Below are positions 2,855 to 64,000 of a stretch of DNA of 64,000 nt, one piece after another. Within the stretch, counting starts at the first letter, position 1. Each line of letters starts with the position of its first letter. A program made the position numbers and the translations under genes. The stretch spans positions 41,991-105,990 of the forward strand of contig NZ_JAAXMS010000007.1 in assembly GCF_012290005.1 (NCBI RefSeq), given 5' to 3'. The notes under the pieces are model-generated. The model did not search any database. It was not told the origin of the DNA and worked only from the letters and a program-made list of their open reading frames with translations. Origin of the DNA: Crateriforma spongiae. Its GTDB lineage: Bacteria > Planctomycetota > Planctomycetia > Pirellulales > Pirellulaceae.

Positions 2855-4387
2855 ATGGTGCGGATTCGGGTACGCCGACCTCGAATCGCGTCGTTTCGCC
2901 GAAACTCGTGCGGACGACACGCCGTCCAATGCGTCCAGGGAGGGACGACCTTGACTGGTATCAAGTTCGCGCTAGCGTCCGTCGCTATTTCTTGGTTGTC
3001 GATGCTGTCGGTATCGGCCAACGCCATCTTGGTGGAATTCACGTCCAAGCAGTGCCAGCACTGTGAAACGATGAAGCCCGTGCTGGCACAACTGGAACGA
3101 TCGGGCGTTGCGATCCGCCGCGTCGACGTGTCCAGCGAACCGCATTTGGTCCGCCGCTACGGCGTCCGCCAAACGCCAACCTATCTGGTCATCGCCGACG
3201 GCAAAGAAGTCACACGCTTGGTCGGCAGCCACAGCATCGACGAACTTCGTCAAGCCTTGCAAACCAATCCCGGTGGACCCCACATCCCAACCGGTTCCCA
3301 GCAATCCGCCGCACCGCCACGGGCGGCTGAATTCGCCGACACTCCTCGAACGCGTCTGGCTGCGGCCGGTCCGGGGGCAACAAACCCGCCACGCTTGGCC
3401 GCCTTCGGACGGTCCGACGTTCGACCGCAAAACGTGCCATCCGTTGCCACAGCCGGCAACACGATGTCCGAAACCATGCCGAACGTCACGATGGCCGATG
3501 CGGTGGAACGTGCTCGCGCCGCAACGGTTCGATTACGTGTTTATGACGGCCATGGCTTTGGCGTTGGCACCGGAACGATCATCGATTCGCACGGTGCGGA
3601 ATCGCTGGTCATGACCTGCGGTCACCTGTTCCGCGATACCGACGGCGAAGGCCGGATCGAAGTTGATCTGTTCGTCGGCGGCGAAACCAAAACCGTGCCC
3701 GGCCAATTGGTCGACTATGACGCAGAAGATCGTGACATCGCCGTGGTGGCGATCCAGCCGGGGATCAACATCCAACCGGTCAAGGTCATCAAGCACAGCC
3801 AAAAGGTCACCACCGGACAAGCCGCTTTCAGTTTCGGATGCGACCGTGGTGCCGATCCCTCGCGGCGTGATACCCGCATCACCGGGGTCGACAAGTACAA
3901 CCAACATTTGGGTGTCAGCAATCTGGAAATCGACGGTGCACCGATCGACGGTCGCAGCGGTGGTGGATTGTTCGACCAGAACGGATGTTTGATCGGCGTC
4001 TGCAACGCAGCGGACTACAAAAGTGATGTCGGCATCTATACCGGACCGGGCTCGATTCACTGGCAATTGGAACGCGTGAATCTGACACATCTGGCCCAAG
4101 GCGATGCCGGCACGGCGGTCGCCCCAACGAATCAATTTTCCGCGACCGTACCAGCCGGTGGTTCACCGGCCGCCGAACCACCGGTCCGGTTGGCGGCACT
4201 GGATGCACCGGCAGGAGGATTTGACGCGGGCATTGTTCAGCCGTCGGCCCTGGCAAGTCCGGCCGGCCAAGACCGTCGCGAAGTGATCGTGATCATTCGC
4301 GATCCCGACCAACCCGACACCCAGCCGCGTGTGTTGACCATTCGCCAACCCAGCGAAGCGCTGATGAATTCTTTGATGACGCACTGA
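2855..4387 (+). CDS. Secreted thioredoxin-domain / trypsin-like serine protease fusion protein
   Basis: Signal-like segment IKFALASVAISWLSMLSVSANA. Thioredoxin fold with CQHC (codons 3053..3064) and the RQTPTYLV cis-Pro region. Chymotrypsin-fold triad context: TCGHLF (His), DIAVVAI (Asp), GRSGGGLF (Ser codon 3956..3958). The start is uncertain: ATG 2855 or TTG 2951. Confidence 0.7.
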   Translation: MVRIRVRRPRIASFRRNSCGRHAVQCVQGGTTLTGIKFALASVAISWLSMLSVSANAILVEFTSKQCQHCETMKPVLAQLERSGVAIRRVDVSSEPHLVRRYGVRQTPTYLVIADGKEVTRLVGSHSIDELRQALQTNPGGPHIPTGSQQSAAPPRAAEFADTPRTRLAAAGPGATNPPRLAAFGRSDVRPQNVPSVATAGNTMSETMPNVTMADAVERARAATVRLRVYDGHGFGVGTGTIIDSHGAESLVMTCGHLFRDTDGEGRIEVDLFVGGETKTVPGQLVDYDAEDRDIAVVAIQPGINIQPVKVIKHSQKVTTGQAAFSFGCDRGADPSRRDTRITGVDKYNQHLGVSNLEIDGAPIDGRSGGGLFDQNGCLIGVCNAADYKSDVGIYTGPGSIHWQLERVNLTHLAQGDAGTAVAPTNQFSATVPAGGSPAAEPPVRLAALDAPAGGFDAGIVQPSALASPAGQDRREVIVIIRDPDQPDTQPRVLTIRQPSEALMNSLMTH

Positions 4388-4489
4388 TCGGCTGATCGAC
4401 CATCTACAATCGCCACAGCAACGTGGCGATGCCGTCGCCACCGATCTTGCCGTCACGAAGCCATTTGTCATCCCAGGGGGACCGCAACG

Positions 4490-5278
4490 TTGCAACACGT
4501 TGATGTCAAAGTTCACGAAGAAATCGCAACGATCGTTTTGGACCGGCCCCAAGTTCGAAACGCGCTCAGTCCCGGGCTATTGGAAGACCTGAACCAAGCG
4601 TTTTCCGATGTTCATCAAGAAAAACGCGTCAGGGCGGTCGTGCTGACCGGCGCCGGATCCGATTTTTGTAGCGGATTGGACCTGGGGGTTTTGAAAGAGA
4701 TCAACGAGCTTCCTGAATCGGAATCTCTGGCCCAGTCGCACCAGTATTGGCGTCAATGGGCCGAGTCGATTGAAGTCGTCTTGCGCTTTCCAAAACCGGT
4801 GGTCGCCGCGGTCGACGGTCTGGCCGCTGGTGCCGGTCTATCGCTGGCTTTGGCAAGTGACTTGATGGTGCTCAGCCACGGGGCGACCCTGTCGGCGCCG
4901 GCAATCCGTCACGGTTTGGTCGGCGGCATCACGGCATCTCTTTTGGCGTTTCGCCACGGCGGGGCGCTCGCTTCGCAGATGGCGTTATCGGGCGATGCCA
5001 TAAATGCCGAAGCCGCCGTTGCCCGCGGCATCGCCTGCCATGCGGTGGATTCCGAACAAATCTGGGTGGCCGCTTGCGACTGGGCGCGGCGTTGCACCCA
5101 GGGGCCTGCCGCCGCGATCCAAGCCACCAAACGTGTGATCAATGAATCGATCGGTGAAGCACTGATCAGCCAGATTTCCGCTGCCGCCGCCGCCGGTGCT
5201 GCCGGTTGCAGCCACGAAACCGCCGCCCAGGGAATCCAAGCCTTTGTCGAAAAAACGGACCCTCAGTGGCATGGTTGA
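4490..5278 (+). CDS. Enoyl-CoA hydratase/isomerase (crotonase) family protein
   Basis: IATIVLDRPQVRNALSPGLLEDL...VRAVVLTGAGSDFCSGLDL...PVVAAVDGLAAGAGLSLALASD is the classic crotonase oxyanion-hole pattern. Non-ATG (TTG) start. Confidence 0.85.
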   Translation: MQHVDVKVHEEIATIVLDRPQVRNALSPGLLEDLNQAFSDVHQEKRVRAVVLTGAGSDFCSGLDLGVLKEINELPESESLAQSHQYWRQWAESIEVVLRFPKPVVAAVDGLAAGAGLSLALASDLMVLSHGATLSAPAIRHGLVGGITASLLAFRHGGALASQMALSGDAINAEAAVARGIACHAVDSEQIWVAACDWARRCTQGPAAAIQATKRVINESIGEALISQISAAAAAGAAGCSHETAAQGIQAFVEKTDPQWHG

Positions 5279-5479: not shown

Positions 5480-7315
5480 ATGTTCGCCATCCTGCATGCA
5501 AGATCGGGTCCCGACAAAGATCGAAATTACACCCTCGATCCGTCCCGACCTGCGCATATCGGACGTGGCACCAGCTGTGAAATCTTGCTGACCGATCCGA
5601 TGAGTTCGCGGTTCCATGCCGTCGTTTTTTTCGAAGACGGGAATTGGCATCTTCGCGACACCAGCAGCCGAAACGGTACCCTGGTCAATGGCCAGAAAGC
5701 GGACACCGCTCGGCTGCTGGACAAGTCGATCATCACGATCGGCGAAACGGATCTGCAATTGGTCGAAGGCGACGCGGAAGATGTCGAAGAATCATCGATC
5801 AAACAAACCTGGGTTGCCGATCCCGATGATCTGAAAGAACGCTTGCAGGATCGGGAGGTCGATCCGATCAACAAGCTGGCACAGACGGAATACCTACTGG
5901 ATTTGTACCAGTTAAGTCTGAATCTGATGTCGGGTTCCAGTGGCGTCGACACCATCGAAACGGTGCTGGAACTGTTGCGCGATCGCACCGCCGCATCGGG
6001 TGTCACCCTGTATCACGAAACACACGAAGGACGGCTGGTTCCGCAATCCAGCTATCCCAAGGATTCGCACAAACGCCTGCAACTTAGCCGACGGCTGATC
6101 CGACGCATTCAACGCAGCAGCGATCCGATGTGGATCGATCGCGAATACGATCCGAAGGTGCGTGGCGAAATCAAGGCGGCCGACGGCAAGCCATGGTCGG
6201 ATGTGATTGTTTGTCCGCTGTCCATCGACGACAACGCGATCGGAATGCTGGCGATGTTCCGTGATGAATCGGCGTTCGATCACCAGCATTATGATTTCGT
6301 CGTGGCGGCATCGCGGTTATTGGCGATCGGTTTGGTCCAATATCAAAAGACACATTCGTTGGCGGTCGAACGCGCCCACTTGGCCGAACGCAATGCCGAA
6401 GGCCCCGAGTTGATTGGTCAGTGTGACGCAATGACTCGGTTGAAAGAACGAATCACCCGGGTCGGTCGCGCCAGCGGATCGGTGTTGATCCGCGGCGAAT
6501 CAGGCAGCGGAAAAGAACTGGTCGCGCGGGCGGTTCATCGCGCCAGCCCGCGTGCCGATCGACCGATGTTGACGGTCAACTGTGCCGCGATTCCACAGGA
6601 TCTGATTGAAAGCCAGTTGTTCGGTCACAAGAAGGGTTCCTTCACCGGCGCCGATACCGATCACGTCGGTTGGTTCGAACAAGCCCACACCGGAACGCTG
6701 TTTTTGGACGAAATCGGCGAACTGACTTTGGAAGGTCAAGCGAAGCTGTTGCGAATCTTGGAAGGCCATCCGTTCTTGCCCGTCGGTGCGACCGAACAAG
6801 TGTTGGTGGATGTGCGGGTGATCGCGGCGACCAATCGCGACTTGGCTGAATTTGTCCGCGAAGGCCATTTCCGCGAAGACCTGTTTTATCGACTCAGCGT
6901 TTTTGAATTGTTCGTCCCACCGCTGCGTGAACGCGAAAGTGATCTGGATCTGTTGATCGATCACTTCTTGGCCCATTTCTGTCGCCAGCATGGTCGGCTG
7001 AAATTACGTTTGTCCGAAGACGCACGCGACCGGATGCACGAATACCCCTGGCCTGGGAACGTCCGGCAATTAAGGAACGTCATTGATAGTGCGGTTGTGA
7101 TGGCGGACGATCCGATGATCCAAGCCGACGATTTAGGGCTGCGCGACGCGGGGATCAGCCGCTTGGACACGCTGCGTATCGACGAATGGGAACGGCGATT
7201 GATCCGACAAGCTTTGGAAAAAAGCGAAGGCAGCGTTCCCAAGGCCGCCAAAATGTTGGGAATCAGTCGTGCGACGGCTTATCGAAAAATTGCCGAGTAT
7301 GACATCCAAAAATAG
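5480..7315 (+). CDS. Sigma-54-dependent transcriptional activator with FHA, GAF, AAA+ and Fis-type HTH domains
   Basis: N-terminal FHA (IGRGTSCEILLTDPMSSRFHAVVFFEDGNWHLRDTSSRNGTLVNG). AAA+ core with GESGSGKELVARAVH, ESQLFGHKKGSFTGA, LFLDEIGEL and VRVIAATNRDL. C-terminal HTH (AAKMLGISRATAYRKI). Confidence 0.9.
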   Translation: MFAILHARSGPDKDRNYTLDPSRPAHIGRGTSCEILLTDPMSSRFHAVVFFEDGNWHLRDTSSRNGTLVNGQKADTARLLDKSIITIGETDLQLVEGDAEDVEESSIKQTWVADPDDLKERLQDREVDPINKLAQTEYLLDLYQLSLNLMSGSSGVDTIETVLELLRDRTAASGVTLYHETHEGRLVPQSSYPKDSHKRLQLSRRLIRRIQRSSDPMWIDREYDPKVRGEIKAADGKPWSDVIVCPLSIDDNAIGMLAMFRDESAFDHQHYDFVVAASRLLAIGLVQYQKTHSLAVERAHLAERNAEGPELIGQCDAMTRLKERITRVGRASGSVLIRGESGSGKELVARAVHRASPRADRPMLTVNCAAIPQDLIESQLFGHKKGSFTGADTDHVGWFEQAHTGTLFLDEIGELTLEGQAKLLRILEGHPFLPVGATEQVLVDVRVIAATNRDLAEFVREGHFREDLFYRLSVFELFVPPLRERESDLDLLIDHFLAHFCRQHGRLKLRLSEDARDRMHEYPWPGNVRQLRNVIDSAVVMADDPMIQADDLGLRDAGISRLDTLRIDEWERRLIRQALEKSEGSVPKAAKMLGISRATAYRKIAEYDIQK

Positions 7316-51958: not shown

Positions 51959-54047
51959 GGCTCATTTCCTTATGCTTCGGCACCGCGACAAGGAAGCGTC
52001 CTGCGGTGTCGCGCTGGCGAAAGGCTTCGGGGTGATTCTGGATCCACTCGGGGACCAGTGCATAGGTTTTGGTCCAGTGGCGGTCTTCGTGAAAGGTCAC
52101 AATGATATCCGGCTGCCACTGGTGAATTTCCTGTTGGACTGCATCAAGCGTTGGCATGTACAGTGGCCGGACCACATCCCGCTGCCGGTACGAACCCAGC
52201 AGTGAATAATAACGGTAAAAACATGCCATGATCCGCGGTTCGGATTCGTCCACCATGGCGGCGTCGATCGTACTTTGCCAAGTCGGACGAGTGTCTCGCG
52301 CCGAATAGAAGGACTCATATTGACGGTGCCAGGTCAGCGAAGCGTACGCAACGCCCACGAAAACAAGCCCGGCACAGGCGATCCCTGCGGTGCGCATGTG
52401 ACGCGACAGCCAGCCCTTCGATTCACAAGCAATGAAGTAAATTAGGGCGATGTCGACGGTTGCCAACGGCCAAAAGAACCATGCTTCGCCCGCGTCCCGG
52501 GCAATCGACTTCATCTCGATCCTGAACATCGTCGGCCACGCCGTCAGTCCCATGGCCACCGTCGCATGAAGAATGACGTCCACACCGACCAAGACGGCCA
52601 CCACGATGCCCAGGAATTGCCCCAGTCGACCGCGATGCCATGCGACAGTGGCAAAGCATAATACGGTCGCGATCGCCGCCAGCGCGAAACCGAAGCGGAC
52701 GCTGTGGTAACGCATCGCCAGCATGTTCTGCGTGCCAAAAACCGTTTCAATCACGTTGGGCGTCATGACATAGACGCACGTCGAACCCAGCGTCAGCCAT
52801 GCCAGGAAAACCAGATAGTTTTGCTTCGGCTTTGACCACCAGTAATACAGTCCGATCGGGATCGAAACGCAAACGCCGGTCATCGTCGCCAGCCATGTCG
52901 ATGGACCGTCCTGTTCAGCCCAGGCCCAAGACAGCTTGCGGAAAATCTCCGCGTCGCCACCACGCATCAAGGTGCTGAATCGATTTCCCGGCCTCATCGC
53001 ATCCCATTGATCCGCCATCCCCAAGGCTTTGAAACCTTTTGGAAACAATGGTGTGCCTTCCAGCAGCCAGTTGCGACCGTACCACACCCCCGCCAACAAA
53101 ACGATCGCAGTCACGCAACACGTCAGCCAAGTCGCGGTCGATTTCCATCCGCCGGTCCGCAGTGCAAAGGCGGCAACGACGCCGACGACCACCAACGCAT
53201 AACCGATCGCGTAGTATTTGATCCCGAACAACAAACCGATCGACATCGCCGCCAGGTACGGTAACCGTTGTCGATCGTCGGCCAACCAACGCCATGCGAA
53301 ACAAGCCGCGGAAACAAGCAAGGTGGCGACGGCCAGGTCGTTCTCTTGGCTGATCAACTGTCGACTGACCACCGATGTGGCCGACACTGAAAAACAGGCC
53401 GCCAATCGCATCACGGCGGGGACTCGTGCGTCGATCAAGGCTTCGTTGACCACACACAACAGCAACAAAGCGACAAAAAGATTGGTCAATCCGGCAAAGA
53501 AATCCCCGCTATAACCGGCGACCCAAAAATAGGTGACCAATTCGTTGTTGCCCGGAACATACCAGAACGCACAACGTTGATTGAATAAGTCGGCGGTCTG
53601 GATCCAGTGATCCACGATGGGCAGGTGATAGGCCAATGAATCCCAGTCGACCGGATACCTGGAAACGCCATACATCAACACGTGGGCGATCATCGATGAA
53701 ACCATCAACGCCGATCCCAACCGCACGGCCCTTTGACGACCGGACTTGCTGAATATTCGCATGCCTGTCGGCCGCCCATTGCGCGTCGGCGGGAACCACC
53801 GTCGAAAAGCGAAACCGATCACAGCCAACGAAAGCTGAAACACCCAAGGGTGAAACATTCCCAAAAAGCCCGAAAACGATGCCACCAAGACCACGCACGA
53901 CCAGACCACCACCAACGTCGCGGCGAACCGAGACGTCAGTCTGTCGGGAACTTGCAACGCGGCAAATCGGTGGCTGCCGGACACCAGCAGCCCGACCGAC
54001 ACCGCCCAAAGCACCGTCCAAGATAGATCCCAAACTACGACGAACAT
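51942..54047 (-). CDS. Large polytopic membrane protein (GT-C / ArnT-PMT-like glycosyltransferase candidate) with C-terminal soluble domain
   Basis: About 15 or more hydrophobic helices followed by a ~130-aa hydrophilic tail. Start trimmed to the ATG at 54047 (MFVVVWDLSW...), overlapping the sulfotransferase stop by 13 nt. No catalytic motif confirmed. Confidence 0.5.
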   Translation of the reverse strand: MFVVVWDLSWTVLWAVSVGLLVSGSHRFAALQVPDRLTSRFAATLVVVWSCVVLVASFSGFLGMFHPWVFQLSLAVIGFAFRRWFPPTRNGRPTGMRIFSKSGRQRAVRLGSALMVSSMIAHVLMYGVSRYPVDWDSLAYHLPIVDHWIQTADLFNQRCAFWYVPGNNELVTYFWVAGYSGDFFAGLTNLFVALLLLCVVNEALIDARVPAVMRLAACFSVSATSVVSRQLISQENDLAVATLLVSAACFAWRWLADDRQRLPYLAAMSIGLLFGIKYYAIGYALVVVGVVAAFALRTGGWKSTATWLTCCVTAIVLLAGVWYGRNWLLEGTPLFPKGFKALGMADQWDAMRPGNRFSTLMRGGDAEIFRKLSWAWAEQDGPSTWLATMTGVCVSIPIGLYYWWSKPKQNYLVFLAWLTLGSTCVYVMTPNVIETVFGTQNMLAMRYHSVRFGFALAAIATVLCFATVAWHRGRLGQFLGIVVAVLVGVDVILHATVAMGLTAWPTMFRIEMKSIARDAGEAWFFWPLATVDIALIYFIACESKGWLSRHMRTAGIACAGLVFVGVAYASLTWHRQYESFYSARDTRPTWQSTIDAAMVDESEPRIMACFYRYYSLLGSYRQRDVVRPLYMPTLDAVQQEIHQWQPDIIVTFHEDRHWTKTYALVPEWIQNHPEAFRQRDTAGRFLVAVPKHKEMSHDVSP

Positions 54048-55063
54048 GCCTGCGATACTGATCGATTGATCAGCGCTGAACGATTGAAGATGCCTCGGCC
54101 GTCTCTCAAGCGGTAAGCCATTTCGGAACACCACACAGCCGGCGGCAGGCCAATCAACGAACGAGCCAGTGAAGCATTGGCGGCAATCAGGTCGGTCATC
54201 GAACACCCACCGCCGTTGGTCGCTACACGATCGTATCCGATTCGATCCATGGTTTGTCCGCAAACACGCTCCACCGGCTCCGCGATGGCGGCACGATTTC
54301 GCCGCCAAGCGGACACCCGGGCAAGGTCGGGCGGATTCAATGCCGTCTGCTTCCAGGCCCGTTCGCGTTCGGGAAAGCAAGAGGCATCGTGGACGCTAGG
54401 CCGCTGAAGCGTCGAAAGAATCGATTCGTCCGCCGACAAACCCAAGAATGTCAGTGCATCGGCAAGTTCCTGTTCGGGACGCGTGACCAACCGTTCGAAA
54501 CGCACCCAGCAAATACGTCGTGGCCAACGTTCGGCCGCGTCCAACAAGCGACGCTGTGTTCGGTCCCAAAGCAATGCCGCACCTCGCACGCTGGTTCGCA
54601 GCCACGGAACGCCCGTCAGGCTTAACGCCACATCCCGTGGATCACGCACGACGAATATCCAACGGCTATCGGGAAAGACTTCATCGATCCAGTCCAGACG
54701 GTACGAGTACTCAGGAGTCTTGTCGCCCAACAAACATTGCCGCTGCGGCGCGTGCCCGACATCGGTCGTCGACACGCGGTTCCGATCGATTCCGTGACTT
54801 GGATAAAGTCGATGCAAGTAGGCATAGATCTCATCAACTCGGCGATCGCCACGCAGCATGTCGGCGGGAAAGGCGACCGAACAATCCGATTCAATCCGTC
54901 GAAGCGTCTTTCGTCGGACCCATCGGGGGCAACCGTGATATAAGAAAAACAGCTTCAGCTCCGGAGGCACCCAAGCATGCGGGTGTCGGTTCAACAACAC
55001 CTGCAGGAAAGTGGTTCCGGATCGCGGGCAACCGACGACGAAGAATGGAAACTGGCTGGACAT
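54035..55063 (-). CDS. Sulfotransferase-family protein
   Basis: 5'-PSB loop FFVVGCPRSGTTFLQ and 3'-PB region FVVRDPRDVALS. Start trimmed to the ATG at 55063; upstream in-frame ATGs exist. Confidence 0.75.
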   Translation of the reverse strand: MSSQFPFFVVGCPRSGTTFLQVLLNRHPHAWVPPELKLFFLYHGCPRWVRRKTLRRIESDCSVAFPADMLRGDRRVDEIYAYLHRLYPSHGIDRNRVSTTDVGHAPQRQCLLGDKTPEYSYRLDWIDEVFPDSRWIFVVRDPRDVALSLTGVPWLRTSVRGAALLWDRTQRRLLDAAERWPRRICWVRFERLVTRPEQELADALTFLGLSADESILSTLQRPSVHDASCFPERERAWKQTALNPPDLARVSAWRRNRAAIAEPVERVCGQTMDRIGYDRVATNGGGCSMTDLIAANASLARSLIGLPPAVWCSEMAYRLRDGRGIFNRSALINRSVSQACSS

Positions 55064-55375
55064 CTGGGAAAAAGGTACGCGGGATTCTTCGCCCAGCAAG
55101 TTAAAAGAAATCCGACTCCGGCCGGTCTTCACCGAAACGTCCGTTTTTTTCCAAACGCCCGGTTCTTTTCCAGCCGCCTCGCTGAGCAAGACCTCCTTGA
55201 ACGCATCGCGACTGATCCTAGCGACCCGGACCGAGCGCATCATACGCCAACCGTGTGACGCAGAATCGACGGACACGTGTCAGCGGCAAACCGAGGTTTT
55301 TTTGACCGCCTTCCCCGGTGGGTGTACAGTTACTGGCTTCCAATTCAGGCAACCGATCCACCGTCTGTCGCGTTG

Positions 55376-55407
55376 GCAGGGGTGCAGGGGTGCAGGGGTG
55401 CAGGGGT
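55376..55407 (+). repeat. Four perfect tandem copies of the octamer GCAGGGGT (a G4N4G4N4G4N4G4 quadruplex motif) abutting a start codon
   Basis: gcaggggt x4 spans 55376..55407. The G-runs are at 55379-82, 55387-90, 55395-98 and 55403-06. An ATG at 55409 follows after 1 nt. Confidence 0.9.
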
Positions 55408-55408
55408 G

Positions 55409-56218
55409 ATGCAAAAACTGGAGCCACAAGCGGGGCAGCTGGCCAAAATCGACCGACTGGCCATTCAATTGGCCGAAAGCGACGATTTGGCGGAAGTCGC
55501 GGAGATCCGAGACAAGTGCGCGTTTCTTCAGGACATGGCGAAAACCGTCTTCAGAAACCTAGACGCCCAGAACCGCGCCGCGGCCAGCAAGCTGCGAGCC
55601 GAGCGGAAGGCCGGCAAGATGCTTGCCGCGATGCGACTTCGTGGGGGCGACCGCCGATCAAGTGGTCACGGCGACCGTTTGAAATTGCACGATCTAGGGA
55701 TTTCTCATAACGATTCCAAACGCTGGCAAAAACGCGCTTCCATCCCGGATGAATGGTTCGAAGCCTATTTGGCGACCGCGGAGAAGCTCGGTGAAGAGAT
55801 CTCGGCAAGCGGTTTGGAACGAACGGCCAGAAAAGCCGAAAGGGCAACCCGGTCCGAGGAGGGTTCGTCCGTGTCGGCCAACGATGGCTGTGCGAAAGAG
55901 GCCAGAGATGGCCCCGCAAATGAAAATACCAACCGCCCGGATGATCGTTCTGAAGTAAAAAGCCCTGCCCGCGACGAGGAAGTTTCAGAGCCGAGCCCCA
56001 GCGGCGTCGCGCTCCTCGGGCACGCGGATGAAATACTTGGCAATGCAAAGGGTCACTGCGACACCTTGGCTCGTCTGGTTTCTCCGTTGGCACAAGACCC
56101 GGACGCAGAATTGTTACCCGCCACGCGGCGAGGGTTGGTCCGTTATGTCGACGAATTGCAGCGGACGCTCAACGAATTATTGAACCTATCCGAATCAAAA
56201 AATGAATGCAGATCATAA
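55409..56218 (+). CDS. Hypothetical protein resembling a prophage/plasmid-borne helical protein family
   Basis: The pattern AEIRDKCAFLQDMAK...NRAAASKLRAERKAGKML...KLHDLGISHNDSKRWQKRASIPDEWFEAYL recalls proteins I associate with phage/plasmid ParB- or methylase-linked regions. This is from memory only. Acidic, disordered C-terminal half. The ORF could start further upstream (55277). Confidence 0.45.
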   Translation: MQKLEPQAGQLAKIDRLAIQLAESDDLAEVAEIRDKCAFLQDMAKTVFRNLDAQNRAAASKLRAERKAGKMLAAMRLRGGDRRSSGHGDRLKLHDLGISHNDSKRWQKRASIPDEWFEAYLATAEKLGEEISASGLERTARKAERATRSEEGSSVSANDGCAKEARDGPANENTNRPDDRSEVKSPARDEEVSEPSPSGVALLGHADEILGNAKGHCDTLARLVSPLAQDPDAELLPATRRGLVRYVDELQRTLNELLNLSESKNECRS

Positions 56219-56988
56219 CGGGATGCTGTTGGTGTTTCCTATCGATCCAGCCTGGCATTGGGCAGCAGCCAGGTTATGCACGGCAGGGCTTTCCGTCAGA
56301 TGCACGATGGTCAACCGCATCGATTGGCGTGCGGGGCCTGCCAGGCGTTCACCCTGCTTTCTCAAAAACGCAAGTCTCGGGGATTCACGAGATCGGCGGG
56401 GATGCTCTGGTGAACGGTTCACTTGAACCCAATCGTACTTTTGGGACGGAGATTTTTGGGTTCCAGGAATTGACGGGCGAACGATCTGGCCCTGTACGAA
56501 GTCCGATGCGGCGTTGGCGCAAGCTCTTCCGAAAATGGTCAGAGTTGACCGGTTTCCGATTCTGCGAAAGAAAATGTCTTGAATCTTCGAAGTTTTGACA
56601 CTTCTCTTGTGGGAAAAGCCTTCGGGGACCTTAAGTTTGCGTTCGTAGTTTCGGTGCCGCAATCTGGAACTTCAGCTATACAAAATTGCGGGTAAGTACA
56701 AAGACACGAGGGCCAGTTTGGCCCGCCGGCGCGTTGCCGTTTCAAAGTTTTTGTCGACGCGTGTGTTCAGGCATGGTTTTTCCATTGTTTTCGTCGTCAA
56801 TCCGCACTGCAAGTTGATGTTGGTCTATTCGTGAGTGATTCGCAAATTGCAGGTCTGGCACCCTGCATCGTGAGGCTCAGTCAATTTCCTTGTGCCTTCA
56901 TGGTTTTTCGGAGGCCCTTGGCGTGTTGATTTGTATTGCGAAATCGCCAGCTGTGACAAGAAACGACAATTGCCTGGATCGTGTTGAT

Positions 56989-58125
56989 ATGTTGAATAAG
57001 CAACGCCCGAGAATGGTCGACCGCAATCGTAAGGTGGCTGGCACCATCGCGTTGGCCTTCTTTTCCTACGCAGTTGGGACTGTCAGAGGCGAGGGGATCA
57101 ATCTGACTCAGGCCGAAGCTGCGACTCAGGAGAAATTTGAAAAGGTCAACCGCCAGTTTCAGGTTTCCTATGTGGTGACGCAGAAATTTGTTGGCGAAGC
57201 AGAGAGATTTGCACCGGCTCACGTTGGTAGCAACGGCACTATGGAGCGTCTCGCTTTGAAATGGTCTGCCGTTCACGCATGGGATCGGCCATCAAAAAAG
57301 TACTATCATCAATTGGGAGCAGGTGCCTCCGCGGATGTTCCCTTCGCGAAGCCCGACGGACGTCGTAGTTTGATGTCCGATGGAGAATTGGCGTATCGTC
57401 TAACAGGGGCTGGCGATGGGATTCACGCCACTCGCGACATTGATTCGACCTTGAACGATCCCACCCGCGTTGGCTCCGATGATCTTTATCGGGAACTGTT
57501 GGGGATGGTGTCGGTTCGGGACGGCTTTGGTGTCAAATTGCGGGACCCGGCTCTTGAAAAGTATGTTTCGCTTCTTGACATTCTCCATGAAGGGTCATAC
57601 GCCGCGACCTGGGTGACACGGCGTGACGAACGCATGCTCAGGCTTGCTGATGAGGGTCGAGATGAAATATTCCTCGATCCGGCTCGAAATTTTGCTCTGG
57701 TCGAACGGGCGCATTATTGGAAAACCTTTCCGGGTGAGGTGCGAACCTCGCTCATTGTTGAGTCGTTCGAAGAAGTCGAGCCGAAGATTTGGATGCCAGT
57801 TCGTGTGAAACTTGAATACTTCTCGCAGCCTCCAAGTTCCGCACCGGTCGTCGAAGCGATCTTGGTTGCTTCGAAGATTAGCCTAACTCCCGATCCCATG
57901 TACTTTCGACTTCCTATCGAGAACGCCCCGGGCATCATCGATGAGGACCGAGGGATCGCCGTCGATATGGCTGATTTGGAAGGCAAGAGCGTTCGCGAGT
58001 TCCTCGACTCTCAGCCGCTGGCGGAAGGGTCGCGAGGTTTTTTCAGTGCACCTGTTCTTTTCGTGGTGCTCAGCAGTTTTCTGTTGGTCGCCTTTCTGAT
58101 CTTTCGCAGGAGAAGGGTTTTGTGA
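56989..58125 (+). CDS. Hypothetical secreted, C-tail-anchored protein (LolA-like/lipoprotein-sorting-fold guess); island paralogue A
   Basis: N-terminal signal/anchor VAGTIALAFFSYAVGTVRG and C-terminal TM FFSAPVLFVVLSSFLLVAFLIF followed by RRRRVL. Lower-GC region. Confidence 0.55.
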   Translation: MLNKQRPRMVDRNRKVAGTIALAFFSYAVGTVRGEGINLTQAEAATQEKFEKVNRQFQVSYVVTQKFVGEAERFAPAHVGSNGTMERLALKWSAVHAWDRPSKKYYHQLGAGASADVPFAKPDGRRSLMSDGELAYRLTGAGDGIHATRDIDSTLNDPTRVGSDDLYRELLGMVSVRDGFGVKLRDPALEKYVSLLDILHEGSYAATWVTRRDERMLRLADEGRDEIFLDPARNFALVERAHYWKTFPGEVRTSLIVESFEEVEPKIWMPVRVKLEYFSQPPSSAPVVEAILVASKISLTPDPMYFRLPIENAPGIIDEDRGIAVDMADLEGKSVREFLDSQPLAEGSRGFFSAPVLFVVLSSFLLVAFLIFRRRRVL

Positions 58126-58156
58126 CGGAGACGATGTACGTGAGCGGACCGACTCA

Positions 58157-59776
58157 ATGAAAAGAAAACTAGCATTTTTCGTGTGTGCGATGTTGGCGTG
58201 CGATGCGTATGCCTTGGAATCGCAACCTCCCCAGAGTGCTCAACGGTGGCGAGATGAGAGATGCTGTGGCCCGGTCAGTCTTTACGTACTTGCGAAATTG
58301 GCTGATCAGCCATTGGATTTGGAGGAGATCATTCGAATCGCCCCACCAAGCGACAAAGGCCGGACAAAAAGCCTGGGAACAGTGGGGGCTTTCCTTGCGG
58401 CGTTTGTTTATTTTCTTTGTAAGATGGTGCGTCGTGGAGTAAGAAAAGCGTTGCTGAAAAGTTTTGTGACCGATGGCACCCGAGCGACTGGTCTGATTCG
58501 GGGGTGGCGTCTGCCATCGTCGCTGACTCGATCAAGTTTCTTCAAGCTCGCCATTTTGTACTGTGGGTTTGCATTTGCTAACGAGCATGCGTGGGGCGAA
58601 CATGTGTTGCCCCGCTCCGTTAGGGCAGCTCTTGAGCAAAACTCATCGCTGTTTTCGAAAGCCAGCATTACTGGTCAGAAGAGTCGAAAAATAATTTCTT
58701 CGATTGAAGACGTAAAAAGCTTGTTTGGAACTCTTGAATCGCGGGACGAGTTCGAGAAAACGCTTGGTTTTGAGCTGAAGTTCAACGGGCCACTTTTTCG
58801 AGAGTCCGTGGTGCACCCCCCGGGGGCCTACTATGCGAGTGAACTCGTAAATGAAATATCTTACGATGGACAAAAGTTTTATCACGGATCGAAAGATCTT
58901 AGTGATCCTGCTTTGAGCAGCGTGTTCGTCTACACGCCGGAGATAGCCACTTCGCGACAAGAGCGCATGGAAGGCCTGGACTATTTGGCATCGATGGAAT
59001 TTTGGTATCTCGATGAAATTGGTTTTAGGGGGCCACACTCCGTGGCGGAGCTTGGTCAGCCGGTTAAATCTGTCATTCTCGATGCTGAGAATCGCGGGAA
59101 AGTCATTTCAGTTGAAGACCTCAGCAACGGGGCAATGGAGTTGATTGAGGTCATCATCGAGCAGCCAGAGCCCTGGCAGAGTCAGATGACATTTGACATC
59201 AAAACGCATGAGCCCTTTGCACTTTTGACGGGCAGTAGTCGCGAATTGCAGATGCGCATTGAGCAAGAGCGGCGAGAGTTGCTGGGAGATAGCCGGAAGA
59301 TTCGATATCGTCTCAGAAAGTCCTTGGGTTACGCCGTCGAAGAGAAATGGGTTTCGAGAGCTTCCACAGGTGATGTTATGTTTCACACGCGGAATTCGGA
59401 CTTTTTGCAAGTTGGCTCAGCTAACGCTTGGATTCCAAGGCGATGTGTCGTTGCGTCATTCGCCTACGAAACTTCTCCTTCATCGATTGCACCTGCGGCA
59501 GTGTTTCAGACTCTGATTGAGATCGTTTCCTATCAAGCGATCGAGTTGGGCAACAGCGAATTCAAGATTTGGTACGACGAAGCCGGTGTAAGGGTTTCCG
59601 ATTGGACCAGTCCGCGAGCCACCCTCGAGGATGCGGATTTCTATCGTGTTCCAGCTTCAATTTTTGATATGCCCCAAAAGTCGCCGTTGATAAGAAATGT
59701 TTTGATTCTAAATTTGATTGTCGTTTTGGGTATTGTCGGGTGGTGGGTTTATCGAAAGAATCGAAAAAACACCTGA
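58157..59776 (+). CDS. Hypothetical chimeric protein with signal peptide, short peptidase-C39-like fragment, TM segment, paralogue-type domain and C-terminal anchor; island paralogue B
   Basis: MKRKLAFFVCAMLACDAYA signal. ERCCGPVSLYVLAKLADQPLDLEEII resembles the N-terminus of C39-like domains. TM VGAFLAAFVYFLCKMV. C-terminal TM VLILNLIVVLGIVGWWVY followed by RKNRKNT. Confidence 0.55.
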   Translation: MKRKLAFFVCAMLACDAYALESQPPQSAQRWRDERCCGPVSLYVLAKLADQPLDLEEIIRIAPPSDKGRTKSLGTVGAFLAAFVYFLCKMVRRGVRKALLKSFVTDGTRATGLIRGWRLPSSLTRSSFFKLAILYCGFAFANEHAWGEHVLPRSVRAALEQNSSLFSKASITGQKSRKIISSIEDVKSLFGTLESRDEFEKTLGFELKFNGPLFRESVVHPPGAYYASELVNEISYDGQKFYHGSKDLSDPALSSVFVYTPEIATSRQERMEGLDYLASMEFWYLDEIGFRGPHSVAELGQPVKSVILDAENRGKVISVEDLSNGAMELIEVIIEQPEPWQSQMTFDIKTHEPFALLTGSSRELQMRIEQERRELLGDSRKIRYRLRKSLGYAVEEKWVSRASTGDVMFHTRNSDFLQVGSANAWIPRRCVVASFAYETSPSSIAPAAVFQTLIEIVSYQAIELGNSEFKIWYDEAGVRVSDWTSPRATLEDADFYRVPASIFDMPQKSPLIRNVLILNLIVVLGIVGWWVYRKNRKNT

Positions 59777-59785
59777 TGTATTGAA

Positions 59786-60317
59786 GTGTTATTGTTCATG
59801 GTGTTTCAGATTCTAGCTTTTCCTGTGGGGGGCTTCGAGAGAGTTTTACCGGTGTTCGATGAAAGCATGACTGCGGATCAGCTTGCGGAGTTTCTAGTGC
59901 TTCATCATGATGCGTTGAAGTCGCTGTCGTTGGTTTGTCAGACTTTTCCGCAGAGTATTGAAGATGAGCCTGAAGGGCATTATTGGCGGAGGACAGTGTC
60001 GGTGAATGGATCGAAGTTGATGTATAGGAGTGACAATGGTCATGGGTATTTAAGGCTGCCCTGGGGATTTGATCCGTTAAAAAAAGACGTTCGTAATGGA
60101 CCCCGATGGCTCTTTGGCATTTGAACATGTAAATCGGAAGTTCACGGAGTGTCAGTTTCGTGCCGGCAATGCGCCGCTTTCGGTTCATTTTTGGCGTATC
60201 GCGATGGCTTTGGGCTCTCCTTGGATGCCTGTTGACGGTGTTGTCCGAGCGTTTTGTCTCACGTTGATCAATCGCGTACTGCCATGTGATTGGTTTGGCA
60301 ATTCCTCGGGGTATTGA
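59786..60317 (+). pseudogene. Probable frameshifted or truncated remnant of an island paralogue
   Basis: Two short ORFs (59786..60124 and 60096..60317) overlap by 29 nt in different frames. There is no signal peptide and no C-terminal anchor. The first ORF resembles the N-terminal mature region of paralogues A and D. Confidence 0.35.
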
Positions 60318-60375
60318 TCCAATCTATTCGCTTGTAAAATCTATTTGAATCGAATTATCTGTTGGGAGATTTTGG

Positions 60376-61545
60376 GTGGAGCGGTTAAGTATGCAGTGTC
60401 GGGTGCTGGTTTGGAAACGGATGCTTCCGATCGCTCTCTTGTTTTTCTGTCCGCTGACAGAGTCGTGGGGGTTAGAGCCAGCCGACGCATTCGAAAGGCT
60501 CTACGGACGACGACTTCAGTGTACGAAAGCGGAAGTGACCGCGAAGTGGACGGTCAGAAAATCCGCGACCGGTGAGACTTATGGTCTGGATCTAAGCCCG
60601 CAGCAGGGATTGGCCAAGATTGCCTTCGACGACGAGGTGCCGATATGGCAGTTGAAAATGGAACGCAATCAGGTTGTCGGTTCGAGATTTCATCGAGATA
60701 CTCCTACAACCAGAAGGCAGATAAACCAAGATAGCTTTTTGCTCGCTGTCGAGTTGGAGAATGACAGGTACTTCTTTAACCCATTTTATATGGGAGCGTT
60801 TCTGTATACGGCACCAAGAAACATTCGTCCGCCGAGGGTTAGTTTTGATCGAATGTACCCTTCGATTCATCCGCGGATGGTCGGCTTGTTTTCATTAGAG
60901 AGTTTTCTTCACGGTGTTTCCCATCAATCGATGGATCGCCGGCGGGAGTGGTCAAAACAACCGAGTACGAAATGTATTGAGACTGAAAATGGGTTTCAAA
61001 TTGTTGGTCCCTCGTCGACCGGACAGCAAGTGGAATACTCCTATGATACGAAAGATGAGCCAATTTTGAGTATTGTGCGAACGATCGGAAGAGTATCCGA
61101 AGACGGCAACTTCGTTCTCGCCGGTGAACCCTGGGCAGTCTTAAAGACCGAACACAGGGAGTTCGGGAAGGCCGTTCTTCCGATCCACGCGAAGCAAGTT
61201 CAGACCGAATACAAGGAGGCCTTTAAAGAAGAAACGAGGGAACCCGTCCATGTTTTGGTCAAAACGGTGATTGATCTGGAACTCGATTGGGACCACGTGA
61301 ATGACAACGACTTCTCGCTCACGAGTGACTACCAATCATGGGGCCTGCCTTCCGGTACACGTGTGCTGGACGCGTCGAAAATGCAGCCAAACACAATCGA
61401 TCGAATCGCAGTGACGTCGATCAAACCACGGAAGCCAAAACCGAATGGATTGCCAGTAATCATCATCCTGTCTTTCGTCACGGTGGGGCTTTTGGTTTGT
61501 CGTTTCCTTTATCGTTGGTGGAGCAATCGTAGGCTTAGTATGTGA
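60376..61545 (+). CDS. Hypothetical secreted, C-tail-anchored protein; island paralogue D
   Basis: Signal RMLPIALLFFCPLTESWG and C-terminal TM LPVIIILSFVTVGLLVCRFLY followed by RWWSNRR. Same architecture as 56989..58125. Confidence 0.55.
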   Translation: MERLSMQCRVLVWKRMLPIALLFFCPLTESWGLEPADAFERLYGRRLQCTKAEVTAKWTVRKSATGETYGLDLSPQQGLAKIAFDDEVPIWQLKMERNQVVGSRFHRDTPTTRRQINQDSFLLAVELENDRYFFNPFYMGAFLYTAPRNIRPPRVSFDRMYPSIHPRMVGLFSLESFLHGVSHQSMDRRREWSKQPSTKCIETENGFQIVGPSSTGQQVEYSYDTKDEPILSIVRTIGRVSEDGNFVLAGEPWAVLKTEHREFGKAVLPIHAKQVQTEYKEAFKEETREPVHVLVKTVIDLELDWDHVNDNDFSLTSDYQSWGLPSGTRVLDASKMQPNTIDRIAVTSIKPRKPKPNGLPVIIILSFVTVGLLVCRFLYRWWSNRRLSM

Positions 61546-61554
61546 AGGCGTGAA

Positions 61555-62814
61555 ATGCGCTCCCGGCGAAACTCGACGACCGTGCTTCGTGCCGTCGCGA
61601 TCGGAGTTGCGGTGATAGCTTCGATTGCGATCGCTGATCGACGCTATGGAGATTCGCTTCATTCCTGGCGATTAAGTATCGAGTACCGAGTCGGAACAAA
61701 CTTCGTTGATACGGGGCAGTTTGCAAACGCGTTTTCCGACGAAAGTGGTCCGACGGGTTGGGTTGCCCCGATTCCGACCGTCCTGTTGGGTGTGGTTTGC
61801 AAGGCAATGAATCACGATGAGAAGCGGATATCGTTTTTTGTTTTGTTGCTAAATGCGTTTTGTTTGTTTTTGGGGGCCTTTTTCGTAGCAAACGGTGATC
61901 GTGTCGGGTTCTCGGTTCCCGTTGTCATCATTCTCTTGACTGCGTTTGGCTTTGAACGCTTGCTGCGTTATCAACCGGAAATCCTTTGCGTTCCAGCGAT
62001 CTCCTTGTGTTTTTTCAGCGCAGGCGAATCGTCTTGTCGATTGCTTCGTCTTTCCAAGCGGAAACTGCTTGTTGCGAAATATCTGAGCCAGAGTCTAGCT
62101 ATCTTAATTTCGCCTATCGTGGGTCTTGCGCTCACAGTGCACTCCGCCGTCGGGTTTGGTCGTGCGCATGGTAGATTTGTGAAAACGGCGTTTGCCTTGT
62201 CGTGCGTCCTTTCACTTGGGTTGGTAATCCTGTGCTCAGTTCGGAACTGGTGGGTTGTCGGGTTGCCAGGATTCGTTAAGACCAACGGTTGGTACGAACT
62301 GTACCAGTCCCAGGTTCTGGATGATGACGGCGTGTTGGATGCGATTACACTTGATCAGCATCCCATTTCGGTGAATTCAAGGGCCCACCTTGATTACTGC
62401 TCAGTTGGTGAAGCCCAATTCATTCGGCAATCCCGAAGTCGCTGTATTGAAGCGATATTACGTAGTCCACTGGAATATTTGAATCGGGTTGTGTACCGAT
62501 TGGCTTCGTTGGTTTTGGGCAGTTTCGTGTTCTGTGGCCAACTTCGACATGCTGATGTGTTTCGTCTGATGGTGTTCGGCGCGGTGCATGGAACAATTGC
62601 TTTCCACTTGGTGGTTCACCCAAATCGCAAGCCGTCTTTTGACCACGCTGTGTTTCTGATTGCACTCTTGGCGGCGCCGTATGTTCTTGTGTCGTTCTAT
62701 GAAAGGTACCGCATCATCTTTTTTCCACCCGTCTATGTTGCGTTCCGATTGTCCATCGAGGCTCTCGCCGGATGTTGGTGGCGACGGGGCCCTGCCATCA
62801 ACCCAGGGATGTAG
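61555..62814 (+). CDS. Polytopic membrane protein (GT-C-like candidate), hypothetical
   Basis: About 10 hydrophobic helices. The N-terminal loop with SGPTGWVAPIPTVLLGVV resembles the first periplasmic loop region of ArnT/PMT-type enzymes (weak). It starts 10 nt after the upstream stop. Confidence 0.5.
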   Translation: MRSRRNSTTVLRAVAIGVAVIASIAIADRRYGDSLHSWRLSIEYRVGTNFVDTGQFANAFSDESGPTGWVAPIPTVLLGVVCKAMNHDEKRISFFVLLLNAFCLFLGAFFVANGDRVGFSVPVVIILLTAFGFERLLRYQPEILCVPAISLCFFSAGESSCRLLRLSKRKLLVAKYLSQSLAILISPIVGLALTVHSAVGFGRAHGRFVKTAFALSCVLSLGLVILCSVRNWWVVGLPGFVKTNGWYELYQSQVLDDDGVLDAITLDQHPISVNSRAHLDYCSVGEAQFIRQSRSRCIEAILRSPLEYLNRVVYRLASLVLGSFVFCGQLRHADVFRLMVFGAVHGTIAFHLVVHPNRKPSFDHAVFLIALLAAPYVLVSFYERYRIIFFPPVYVAFRLSIEALAGCWWRRGPAINPGM

Positions 62815-62827
62815 TGTTTCATTCGTC

Positions 62828-63143
62828 GTAGGCCACGTGGTGGGTGACGGGAAGCTGATTCGACGTGGGCAAAAAGGTGTACCCGTTGGCTTACCGGCGT
62901 GGTTGTCATGCGGAGCATGACCTACGGATGTAGGTCACGCTGTGCGTGACGGGAACCCAGATTCGACGTGGGCAAAAAGGTGTACCCGTTGGCCTACCGA
63001 CGTGGTTGTCATGCGGAGCATGACCTACGGATGTAGGTCACGCTGTGCGTGACGGGAAGCTGATTCGACGTGGGCAAAAAAGGTGTACCCGTTGGCCTGC
63101 CGGCGTGGTTGTCATGCGGAGCATGACCTACGGATGTGGTGAC
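62828..63143. repeat. Tandem array (~2.9 copies) of a 102-103-nt highly structured non-coding unit
   Basis: Units at 62844..62945, 62946..63048 and 63049..~63143, with only a few substitutions or 1-nt indels between them, plus a degenerate partial copy at ~62828..62843. Each unit carries gtcatgc-gga-gcatgac, tgacctac-ggat-gtaggtca and gtcacgc-tgt-gcgtgac. The array lies between convergent genes. Confidence 0.9.
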
Positions 63144-63154
63144 TGAGACTTGTC

Positions 63155-63937
63155 TTAGTAGACTGATTCAGCGACCGGTTGTTCCTGGTCCCAGGTGCAG
63201 CGTTTGACGTACCACTGGCGATCGCCGGTTTCCGCGTCGATTTTGAATGCCATCGTGACGATGATGTCGTTCTTGAACGGATCGGTGTGATTGTTCCAAT
63301 TCGTCTCCACGTATTGTTCGCCAAAGTGGGTGTACATCCGGGCCGAGCCGACTTGAAACAATTCGATATCGCCGCCGATGTCTTCCAAGGCGGCGACGCA
63401 ATCGTCTTCCTTGTAGTTTTCCATCGGCGACATCCCCATGCCATCTTCCATCGCCCGCACTTCGGCTTCCAGTTGTTCGTAGTGGGTCACAAGCGGTGTG
63501 CCGGGTGAAACGCGGTTGATGTGATCCTTGCGCATTTCCATCACCATTTCGCGGTCGCCGCGGGCCATCAGCCGCAAGTACTCTTTAGCGAAATACGCCG
63601 ATTCAGTGCCCACCGTTTGCGTTGCCAGCAAAGGCATCAGAGTTCCGCAAACACCAAAGCCCACCGCCAAAACCATTCCGATCTTGGCCGGTAGGGTCCC
63701 GATCGGTCGGCCGCGGTCGCTAGGCCGCAACGCGATCAACCCAAGCAGGATCGCGATCACGGGAAGCACCAACAGAGGCGTGCCCAGCAGACAAAATACG
63801 CTGGCCAGCCCCGCTAGTAGTGCGAAAAAACCCGAGGCGCGAATGGGCGTGGGTTGTTCTTCCACCCCGTACCCGGTTTCGGCACCGATCAAAGGCGAAC
63901 TGGACAACGAATCGCTGACAGCGGTCGTATCGGACAT
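63155..63937 (-). CDS. Hypothetical membrane protein (two or three N-terminal TM helices plus a soluble C-terminal domain)
   Basis: TM segments FFALLAGLASVFCLLGTPLLVLPVIAILLGLIAL and IGMVLAVGFGVCGTLMPLLA. Start taken as the ATG at 63937 (MSDTTAVSD). The ORF is open to the window edge, so a longer form cannot be excluded. Confidence 0.5.
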   Translation of the reverse strand: MSDTTAVSDSLSSSPLIGAETGYGVEEQPTPIRASGFFALLAGLASVFCLLGTPLLVLPVIAILLGLIALRPSDRGRPIGTLPAKIGMVLAVGFGVCGTLMPLLATQTVGTESAYFAKEYLRLMARGDREMVMEMRKDHINRVSPGTPLVTHYEQLEAEVRAMEDGMGMSPMENYKEDDCVAALEDIGGDIELFQVGSARMYTHFGEQYVETNWNNHTDPFKNDIIVTMAFKIDAETGDRQWYVKRCTWDQEQPVAESVY

Positions 63938-64000
63938 TGCGGAATCGACGAAGCAAGTGGGAACGTTGGTTTGGGAAGCTTCGGCCGTGCGATGACGCAA

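Follow-up and report, generated by a model that had tools for sequence, protein, structure and literature searches.

The tandem array that fills the space between two convergent genes of Crateriforma spongiae is probably a cluster of GTAG-tagged REPs (repetitive extragenic palindromes), the kind of repeat that is mobilised by RAYT transposases. In the most likely reading, this type of repeat is already familiar from bacteria and only the sequence of its stem is new; it is notable mainly for rearranging far faster than the DNA around it. In what follows, the window is the whole 64-kb stretch of C. spongiae DNA that was analyzed, and positions are counted from its first nucleotide.

Tandem Repeats Finder places the array at 62828-63137, with a period of 103, 3.0 copies, 92% matches, and a score of 539, which makes it the top-scoring repeat of the 64-kb window by a wide margin. 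A self-comparison identified it as the sole internal duplication within the window, in which no IS was detected. Its three units span 62828-62929 (102 nt), 62930-63032 (103 nt), and 63033-63135 (103 nt), and an 8-nt remnant, GTGGTGAC, directly follows unit 3 at 63136-63143. These dimensions bear out the first-pass annotation, a reading of the letters alone that had described about 2.9 near-identical 102-nt tandem copies filling the gap between convergent genes. The gap measures 340 bp and separates a plus-strand ORF (61555-62814) from a minus-strand ORF (63155-63937). The first REP starts 13 nt past the stop codon of the former; the distance from the array to the latter is about 11-23 nt, and the last element ends 11 nt before that stop codon. 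According to Di Nocera et al. 2013 (PMC3733652), REPs favour convergent intergenic regions, where less than 20 bp separates them from either ORF. REPs typically lie outside genes, close to the 3' ends of convergent or co-directional ORFs, and the placement of the array is of this kind.

Two REP subtypes of 21 nt each build the array: GTAG followed by GTCACGC-TGT-GCGTGAC, here called REP(+), and GTAG followed by GTCATGC-TCC-GCATGAC, here called REP(-). Three times over, the array repeats the series REP(+), 56/57-nt linker, REP(-), and GGAT, with a degenerate REP at its left edge and a truncated one at its right edge. Written out in full, the order is a degenerate REP(+), two blocks of 56/57-nt linker, REP(-), GGAT, and REP(+), and then a 57-nt linker, REP(-), GGAT, and the truncated REP(+). 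The elements and the two flanking genes are listed below with the analyses that define them in parentheses; bit scores are those of the covariance model R1, and the C. conspicua genomes named are described further on.

61555..62814, plus strand: upstream convergent gene of a 419-aa multi-pass membrane protein (ORF list; without a Pfam match; the same 419-aa gene is called in C. conspicua V7)
62828..62848, plus strand: left-edge degenerate REP(+), GTAGGCCACGTGGTGGGTGAC, with GTAG kept and the stem decayed to about 4 bp (R1, 31.7 bits)
62849..62904, no strand: long linker A1, 56 nt, beginning with the conserved GGGAA tail of REP(+) (unit dissection, alignment)
62905..62925, minus strand: REP(-) copy 1; the minus strand reads GTAG GTCATGC TCC GCATGAC (exact pattern; GTAG-hairpin scan with gap 0, stem 7, and loop 3; R1, 30.4 bits)
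62926..62929, no strand: short linker GGAT, which separates the two tags of tail-to-tail dimer 1, whose 46-nt palindrome spans 62905-62950 (invariant in all five genomes)
62930..62950, plus strand: REP(+) copy 1, GTAG GTCACGC TGT GCGTGAC (exact pattern, GTAG-hairpin scan; R1, 36.4 bits)
62951..63007, no strand: long linker A2, 57 nt, similar at its start, GGGAACCCAGATTC, to the type-B linkers found in C. conspicua (unit dissection, alignment)
63008..63028, minus strand: REP(-) copy 2 (exact pattern, GTAG-hairpin scan, R1)
63029..63032, no strand: short linker GGAT of tail-to-tail dimer 2, whose 46-nt palindrome spans 63008-63053 (unit dissection, folding)
63033..63053, plus strand: REP(+) copy 2 (exact pattern, GTAG-hairpin scan, R1)
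63054..63110, no strand: long linker A3, 57 nt (unit dissection, alignment)
63111..63131, minus strand: REP(-) copy 3, found at this position in all five genomes (exact pattern, R1)
63132..63143, plus strand: right edge, GGAT plus GTGGTGAC, which we infer to be the remnant of an internally deleted REP(+) (GGAT GTGGTGA(C/T) is kept in all five genomes)
63155..63937, minus strand: downstream convergent gene, encoding a DUF4190-like membrane protein of 260 aa (same sequence as WP_168566372.1 from Crateriforma spongiae)

The five full REP copies share a perfect 7-bp stem and a 3-nt loop, in agreement with the form of a REP (a stem-loop of 20-40 bp with a stem of 5-13 bp, a loop of 2-20 nt, and an unpaired GTAG or GTRG tag at one end), and in each of them an unpaired GTAG lies directly 5' of the stem (gap 0), on the strand that fits the orientation of the copy. 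The underlying pattern, GTCAYGC-N3-GCRTGAC, occurs five times in contrast to 0.08 expected by chance, and the three hairpins quoted in the first-pass annotation exist as written. R1 scores the six REPs of the array at 30-36 bits and nothing above 15 bits elsewhere in the window. The two subtypes take turns in opposite orientations, a short linker follows each long one, and the whole motif is repeated in tandem, so the array has the organization of a BIME-like, tandem REP-dimer cluster.

A 46-nt nested palindrome, GTCATGCGGAGCATGAC-CTAC-GGAT-GTAG-GTCACGCTGTGCGTGAC, is present at 62905-62950 and 63008-63053, and it consists of two 21-nt REPs placed tail to tail, 4 nt (GGAT) apart. The array holds only two full palindromes; a third is truncated at the right edge, and a degenerate half stands at the left edge. 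Because the ends are degenerate, there are only two complete sets of the three hairpins. Within each set, hairpins 1 and 3 are the small stem-loops of REP(-) and REP(+), and hairpin 2 closes around GGAT; it is hairpin 2, and not hairpin 3 as had been stated, that spans the junction between units in the phase originally chosen for them.

The predicted energies of the 46-mer are -30.8 kcal/mol for a single 19-bp stem-loop, -18.0 for hairpins 1 and 3 together, and -11.6 for hairpin 2 alone, each small REP hairpin accounting for -8 to -10 kcal/mol. The proposal that either hairpins 1 and 3 or hairpin 2 alone can form is therefore incomplete, the extended 19-bp hairpin being far more stable than either. 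Since the long hairpin dominates by 13 kcal/mol, we reject a three-state RNA switch, and the idea that the mutually exclusive hairpins constitute a special switch finds no support. The halves of tail-to-tail REP dimers are described as folding separately or as one stem-loop (PMC3733652), so hairpins that appear mutually exclusive are to be expected in such a dimer.

The loop sequence distinguishes REP(+) from REP(-), as does a single compensatory change in the stem, from C:G to U:A. Each small hairpin stays perfect, while the same change places two G.U pairs (plus strand) or two A.C mismatches (minus strand) in the long hairpin. Covariation, which had been suggested as a check, gives thin support: one compensatory pair is found among six distinct sequences, and 30 of 500 shuffles do as well, so that the single REP covariation is suggestive rather than significant. 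For either strand of the array, the predicted fold is more stable than that of shuffled sequences (z = -5.0 and -4.7; -157.7 versus -120.9 kcal/mol). The head-to-head unit, that is, GTAG-REP(+), linker, and REP(-)-CTAC, is predicted to form a single extended hairpin on the plus strand, with an energy of -39 to -46 kcal/mol.

In the GTAG REP superfamily, as Di Nocera et al. (2013, PMC3733652) describe it, the GTAG tag is unpaired, most stems measure 6-9 bp, and many loops have 2-3 nt. They form head-to-head dimers, with GTAG outside, and tail-to-tail dimers, with GTAG inside, some partners being 1-5 bp apart; heterodimers of two REP subtypes occur, as do clusters of dimers reiterated in tandem (PMC3733652). 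The planctomycete Rhodopirellula baltica carries GTAG REPs together with "a plethora" of RAYT transposase genes (PMC3733652). Every anatomical point of this superfamily, which includes GTAG-20, -21, and -22 of R. baltica, is shared by the Crateriforma array, and the subtypes of the superfamily differ by complementary stem changes, as do those of Crateriforma (PMC3733652).

Planctomycete REPs next to RAYT genes, at two loci from complete genomes, served as positive controls. Around its RAYT gene, Roseimaritima multifibrata has the element GTAG-T-GGATCTT-GTTA-AAGATCC in four copies. In Rhodopirellula sp. P2, nine copies of a 24-nt REP lie on one strand within 8.6 kb beside the RAYT gene, which has an array with a period of 97 nt (1.8 copies) upstream and another with a period of 147 nt (4.0 copies) downstream, both made of head-to-head REP dimers. 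Planctomycete REPs are therefore documented to build tandem arrays of dimers, with periods of about 100-150 nt. The same Rhodopirellula RAYT locus contains an intergenic singleton, GTAGGCCATGTCTCACATGGC, that is matched by R1 with 21.8 bits (E = 0.004); its build is that of the Crateriforma REP, with two stem positions changed in a compensatory way. Of the four earlier proposals, that of a REP/BIME-like element is thus the one supported, given the GTAG-tagged stem-loops of 7 bp and 3 nt, the inverted alternating subtypes, and the RAYT-flanking planctomycete REPs that are built alike. Two differences should be set beside this likeness: the Crateriforma stem sequence is unlike those of the planctomycete REPs compared (GGATCTT..., CCGGATTC...), and Crateriforma shows one locus in about 100 kb, in contrast to at least nine copies in 8.6 kb beside the RAYT gene of Rhodopirellula sp. 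P2.

The BIME-2 elements of E. coli, composed of Y and Z2 REPs, resemble the Crateriforma array in having two inverted, alternating subtypes with short and long linkers in alternation, and both are tandem arrays of variable number that lie extragenically at gene 3' ends and differ in copy number between strains. They have no sequence relationship, and whereas the linkers of BIMEs belong to a few types conserved genome-wide, the long linker of Crateriforma is an entirely different one from strain to strain (types A, B, and C). Interactions with IHF, gyrase, and Pol I are known for BIMEs. The Crateriforma head-to-head unit is also REPIN-like in folding as one long hairpin (Bertels and Rainey 2011, PMC3116915; PMC3337134), its length being 84-99 nt for linker types A and B and 175 nt for type C. 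A REPIN is a proposed mobile unit with tens to hundreds of near-identical dispersed copies and a single-copy RAYT (PMC3116915; PMC3337134); all the Crateriforma REP copies seen in about 100 kb sit at one locus. REP families can be limited to few loci, as GTAG-23 of Thermomicrobium roseum shows; these elements differ from the Crateriforma repeat in phylum and in sequence.

The orthologous locus was compared in four assemblies of Crateriforma conspicua: Mal65 (CP036319), V7 (SJPZ01000002), CP178615, and Pan14r (SJPL01000001), of which V7 and CP178615 are identical at the array. REPs occupy the same slot in all four genomes, with linkers and copy numbers that differ from those of C. spongiae. The slot holds three units with the type-A linker (about 52 nt) in the window; one unit with the type-B linker (about 38 nt) in Mal65, where the left REP is degenerate; one unit with the type-B linker (about 38 nt) in Pan14r, where the left REP is perfect; and, in V7 and CP178615, one unit with the type-C linker (about 130 nt), one full 46-nt palindrome, and then a type-B-like unit. 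These lengths exclude the shared GGGAA tail. An alignment of seven units from the five genomes shows that the REPs, the GGGAA tail after REP(+), and CTAC plus GGAT are invariant or nearly so, while the three linker types cannot be aligned with one another except at their ends.

The window and V7 are colinear, with 98.74% identity over 9,742 bp up to position 62853, where the similarity stops; it restarts at the last REP, and no linker is held in common. The genes that flank the array in these two genomes are 98.1% and 99.4% identical. Given that linkers and copy number differ despite flanks up to 98.7% identical, the array is a rearrangement hotspot: its structure turns over much faster than the surrounding sequence, and the 21-nt REPs are nearly unchanged. 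The left-edge degenerate REP(+) of the window is identical in Mal65, and a perfect REP(+) stands in the same position in Pan14r. Mal65 and Pan14r, with a flanking gene that is 98.6% identical, differ at 4 of the 21 positions of the left REP, a difference that suggests out-of-register recombination between repeats and not point mutation. In other genera, more remote orthologues of this gene are found without the repeat and with a different convergent neighbour.

Further copies were sought at several scales. REP families usually comprise tens to thousands of dispersed copies. A pattern search that tolerated four mismatches revealed no other REP, either in the 64-kb window or in another 40 kb or so of Crateriforma sequence, and R1, run unfiltered, detected no further copy in about 100 kb of Crateriforma DNA, its next best match scoring 15 bits versus 30-36 for the array. 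The absence of a further copy in about 100 kb speaks against a very abundant REP family: if at least 300 loci were placed randomly in 7 Mb, finding none in a further 100 kb would be unlikely, whereas tens of copies would still be compatible with the result. When 185,579 species-representative genomes, JGI metagenome contigs, and viral contigs were scanned for the 20-base tail-to-tail core, all four matches were attributable to chance: they comprise the core alone, within unrelated flanks. A single 21-nt REP had two chance matches among viral contigs, both without the hairpin, and the plasmids of PLSDB gave no match by distant blastn. Peptides from the six frames of the REP dimer found no counterpart at E <= 10 among about 15 billion predicted proteins. 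In Rfam 15, which the first-pass annotation had proposed to scan, no family matches the array even at E <= 10, and three weak matches outside it are far below their gathering scores.

It had also been proposed to look for RAYT-type transposases in the genome; a RAYT gene flanked by its own REP is called a REPtron. A tblastn search with the R. baltica RAYT, whose sequence was taken from the supplement of PMC3733652, detected no RAYT encoded in the window or in the orthologous Crateriforma loci. The family of this RAYT comprises 863 homologue clusters in Planctomycetota, and none of the 120 clusters listed is labelled Crateriforma.

Among the alternatives to a REP cluster, the one that survives best, although we consider it unlikely, is a locus-specific duplication of a hairpin-bearing 3' UTR whose hairpins would act in place as non-canonical bidirectional terminators or stabilisers, the likeness to REPs being convergent. 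The searches just described are in keeping with such an origin: about 100 kb of Crateriforma DNA contains this locus alone, representative genomes and metagenomes yielded no true match to the palindrome core, and REP-derived peptides are absent from predicted proteins. A role in RNA would also suit the better-than-shuffled folding of both strands (z = -5.0 and -4.7) and the outermost hairpin beside each gene end, kept in all five genomes. However, three of these genomes have let the left-edge hairpin decay, a sign that selection for a terminator is not strong at that edge, and the U-tract is absent from the array. Moreover, a terminator needs no GTAG tag, whereas both subtypes carry one, placed exactly as in the RAYT-flanking planctomycete REPs; the alternating inverted subtypes with their fixed 4-nt tail-to-tail spacer are typical of REP dimers; and Rhodopirellula has a comparable GTAG hairpin whose stem shows compensatory changes.

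The identity of an intrinsic (Rho-independent) terminator was rejected separately. No terminator-like site was reported on either strand of 62828-63143, and with no U-tract the hairpins are not canonical intrinsic terminators; two terminator-like sites were called within the downstream gene, as many as chance would give. The earlier suggestion of a terminator or mRNA-stabiliser stack can accordingly be kept only as a plausible consequence of the hairpins, by analogy with other REPs, and not as a canonical terminator.

A second alternative, which we regard as very doubtful, is that the array is a single-locus, self-renewing hairpin array outside any dispersed RAYT-driven family, in which the dimers would be joints that exchange, delete, or amplify the non-coding linker cassettes A, B, and C. 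If it were true, two membrane-protein genes would share at their 3' ends a hypervariable, hairpin-delimited locus whose turnover exceeds that of point mutation by orders of magnitude, and this locus might tune the flanking genes or serve as the substrate of a dedicated single-stranded DNA recombinase.

It is highly improbable that the 17-bp palindromes GTCATGC-GGA-GCATGAC and GTCACGC-TGT-GCGTGAC are double-stranded operators for a dimeric nucleoid-associated or partition-type factor. Five perfect 7-N3-7 palindromes, versus 0.08 expected, and their strong conservation between genomes with variable spacers are what operators would show; but the sites lie at convergent gene 3' ends with no promoter-like site nearby, no DNA-binding gene was recognised among the neighbours, the compensatory pair preserves the hairpin and not a fixed half-site, and the conserved GTAG tags sit outside the palindromes.

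We give almost no credence to a multi-copy sRNA or decoy array or to a CRISPR- or attC-like cassette system, in which the palindromes would be processing or recombination sites and the linkers the payload. Conserved palindromes do alternate with strain-variable segments of 38, 52, and 130 nt that turn over much faster than the flanks, but the linkers share homologous ends and resemble indel-ridden variants of each other, the array lacks an Rfam match even at E = 10 and a promoter-like site, with no sigma-70-like promoter within it, and the neighbour proteins that were scanned contain no cas, integrase, or recombinase domains. The sRNA or decoy and the protein-binding array entertained in the first-pass annotation thus gained no positive evidence, the missing Rfam match and promoter-like site bearing on both.

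Three further identities can be set aside briefly. A CRISPR array, already discounted at first reading, is incompatible with spacers that in the window are more than 90% identical to one another and that range across strains from 38 to 130 nt, a more than three-fold variation unlike that of CRISPR, with no cas domains in the scanned neighbours. Integron attC cassettes would have no integrase among the scanned neighbours, and the "cassettes" are without ORFs. A coding repeat conflicts with a period that is not a multiple of three and with stop codons in four of the six palindrome frames.

Returning to the array as a GTAG-REP cluster, its REPs may derive from the activity of a RAYT-type HUH tyrosine transposase and could still be its substrates; such an enzyme would recognise the single-stranded hairpin and cleave at GTAG. 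Units could be gained and lost through slippage or unequal recombination between the direct repeats of 46-51 bp, and an ancestral array with linker types A, B, and C might have given rise to the five present states by a handful of deletions and duplications. By analogy with other such sequences, the palindromic DNA might be extruded into hairpins or cruciforms and thereby promote the observed instability. Transcription from either of the convergent genes would place stem-loops of -8 to -31 kcal/mol in the 3' UTR, where they could shield the mRNA from 3' exonucleases or damp read-through into the opposing gene. For enterobacterial REPs, slowing of 3' exonucleases or of read-through has been shown.

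If the array is indeed a REP cluster, it adds a GTAG-REP family with a new sequence, from a genus that has received little study. The genus belongs to Planctomycetota, a phylum in which REP/RAYT systems are documented for few species only. The general understanding of REPs is unchanged by it. Its interest lies rather in being a clean natural example of the speed at which REP clusters restructure, with 98.7% identity over the adjacent 9.7 kb and no linker in common, and the locus is well suited to asking whether REP clusters turn over by transposition or by slippage. Because no linker is shared at this level of identity, the locus is also a potentially sensitive strain-typing marker for Crateriforma.

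A minor observation concerns the octamer CGACGTGG, which had been described as occurring twice per unit. This holds for unit 2, the only one with two exact copies, while units 1 and 3 each contain one exact copy and the variant CGGCGTGG.

The RAYT locus of Rhodopirellula sp. P2 (CP118225; RAYT being the transposase linked to REPs) is a textbook REPtron, its RAYT gene being flanked on both sides by REP-dimer arrays. The locus (L012) holds the following features, given in its own positions:
3778-3953, tandem head-to-head REP-dimer array, period 97 nt, 1.8 copies
4001-4576, RAYT gene
4594-5176, tandem head-to-head REP-dimer array, period 147 nt, 4.0 copies
5968-6562, further REP dimers in the next intergenic region
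6163-6183, singleton GTAG hairpin, GTAGGCCATGTCTCACATGGC

The singleton hairpin is similar to the Crateriforma REP, from which it differs by two compensatory stem changes, and this likeness may indicate a REP type common to several genera. The R. baltica-type RAYT family, which comprises 863 clusters and is widespread in Planctomycetota, is unusually uniform, with mostly about 60% identity to the query among the matches listed (P0008-P0127). None of these listed homologues carries a precomputed Pfam domain; therefore, the family seems to be missed by the standard Y1_Tnp annotation.

The similarity of window positions 53135-64000 to the loci of C. conspicua V7 (L009, SJPZ01000002), Mal65 (L005, CP036319) and Pan14r (L011, SJPL01000001) was compared. 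V7 is nearer to the C. spongiae window, with which it shares 98.7% identity across 9.7 kb, than to Mal65, the type strain of C. conspicua, where the figure for the DUF4190 gene is 94.3%; the order of relative similarities flips from one gene flanking the array to the other. This closeness and this switch suggest either mosaic recombination or a questionable species boundary.

The right side of the array is conserved, with the DUF4190-like gene, LpxB, CinA and a Ser/Thr kinase, and the genes on its left, for which Pfam gave zero matches, look like a strain-variable island. Two differences between strains lie to the left of the array:
window 58360-60333 versus L011 13387-17828, Pan14r replacement segment, separated from the array by about 2.5 kb
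L005 14676-15964 (window about 59045-59048), IS3-family insertion sequence of Mal65, 1.29 kb

Pan14r has about 4.4 kb of other genes, including a PMT_2 glycosyltransferase and a Peptidase_C39, in place of roughly 2 kb of the window. In the Mal65 element, GAGGGAAAC is the site of the -1 frameshift of orfA/orfB, and an rve domain is present. This element is absent from V7 and from the window, which has no copy of it at any position.

Two further details of the window are these:
62899-62921, 63002-63024 and 63105-63127, + strand, GTGG with REP(-) hairpin
55376-55408, 8-nt unit GCAGGGGT repeated perfectly in tandem, 4.1 copies, scored 66 by Tandem Repeats Finder

On the + strand, GTGG stands two bases upstream of each REP(-) hairpin (CGTGGTT-GTCATGC...), which in the window thus has a tag on both strands. 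This GTGG is probably incidental, since it is part of linker type A, the long C. spongiae linker, and is missing from the C. conspicua linkers.
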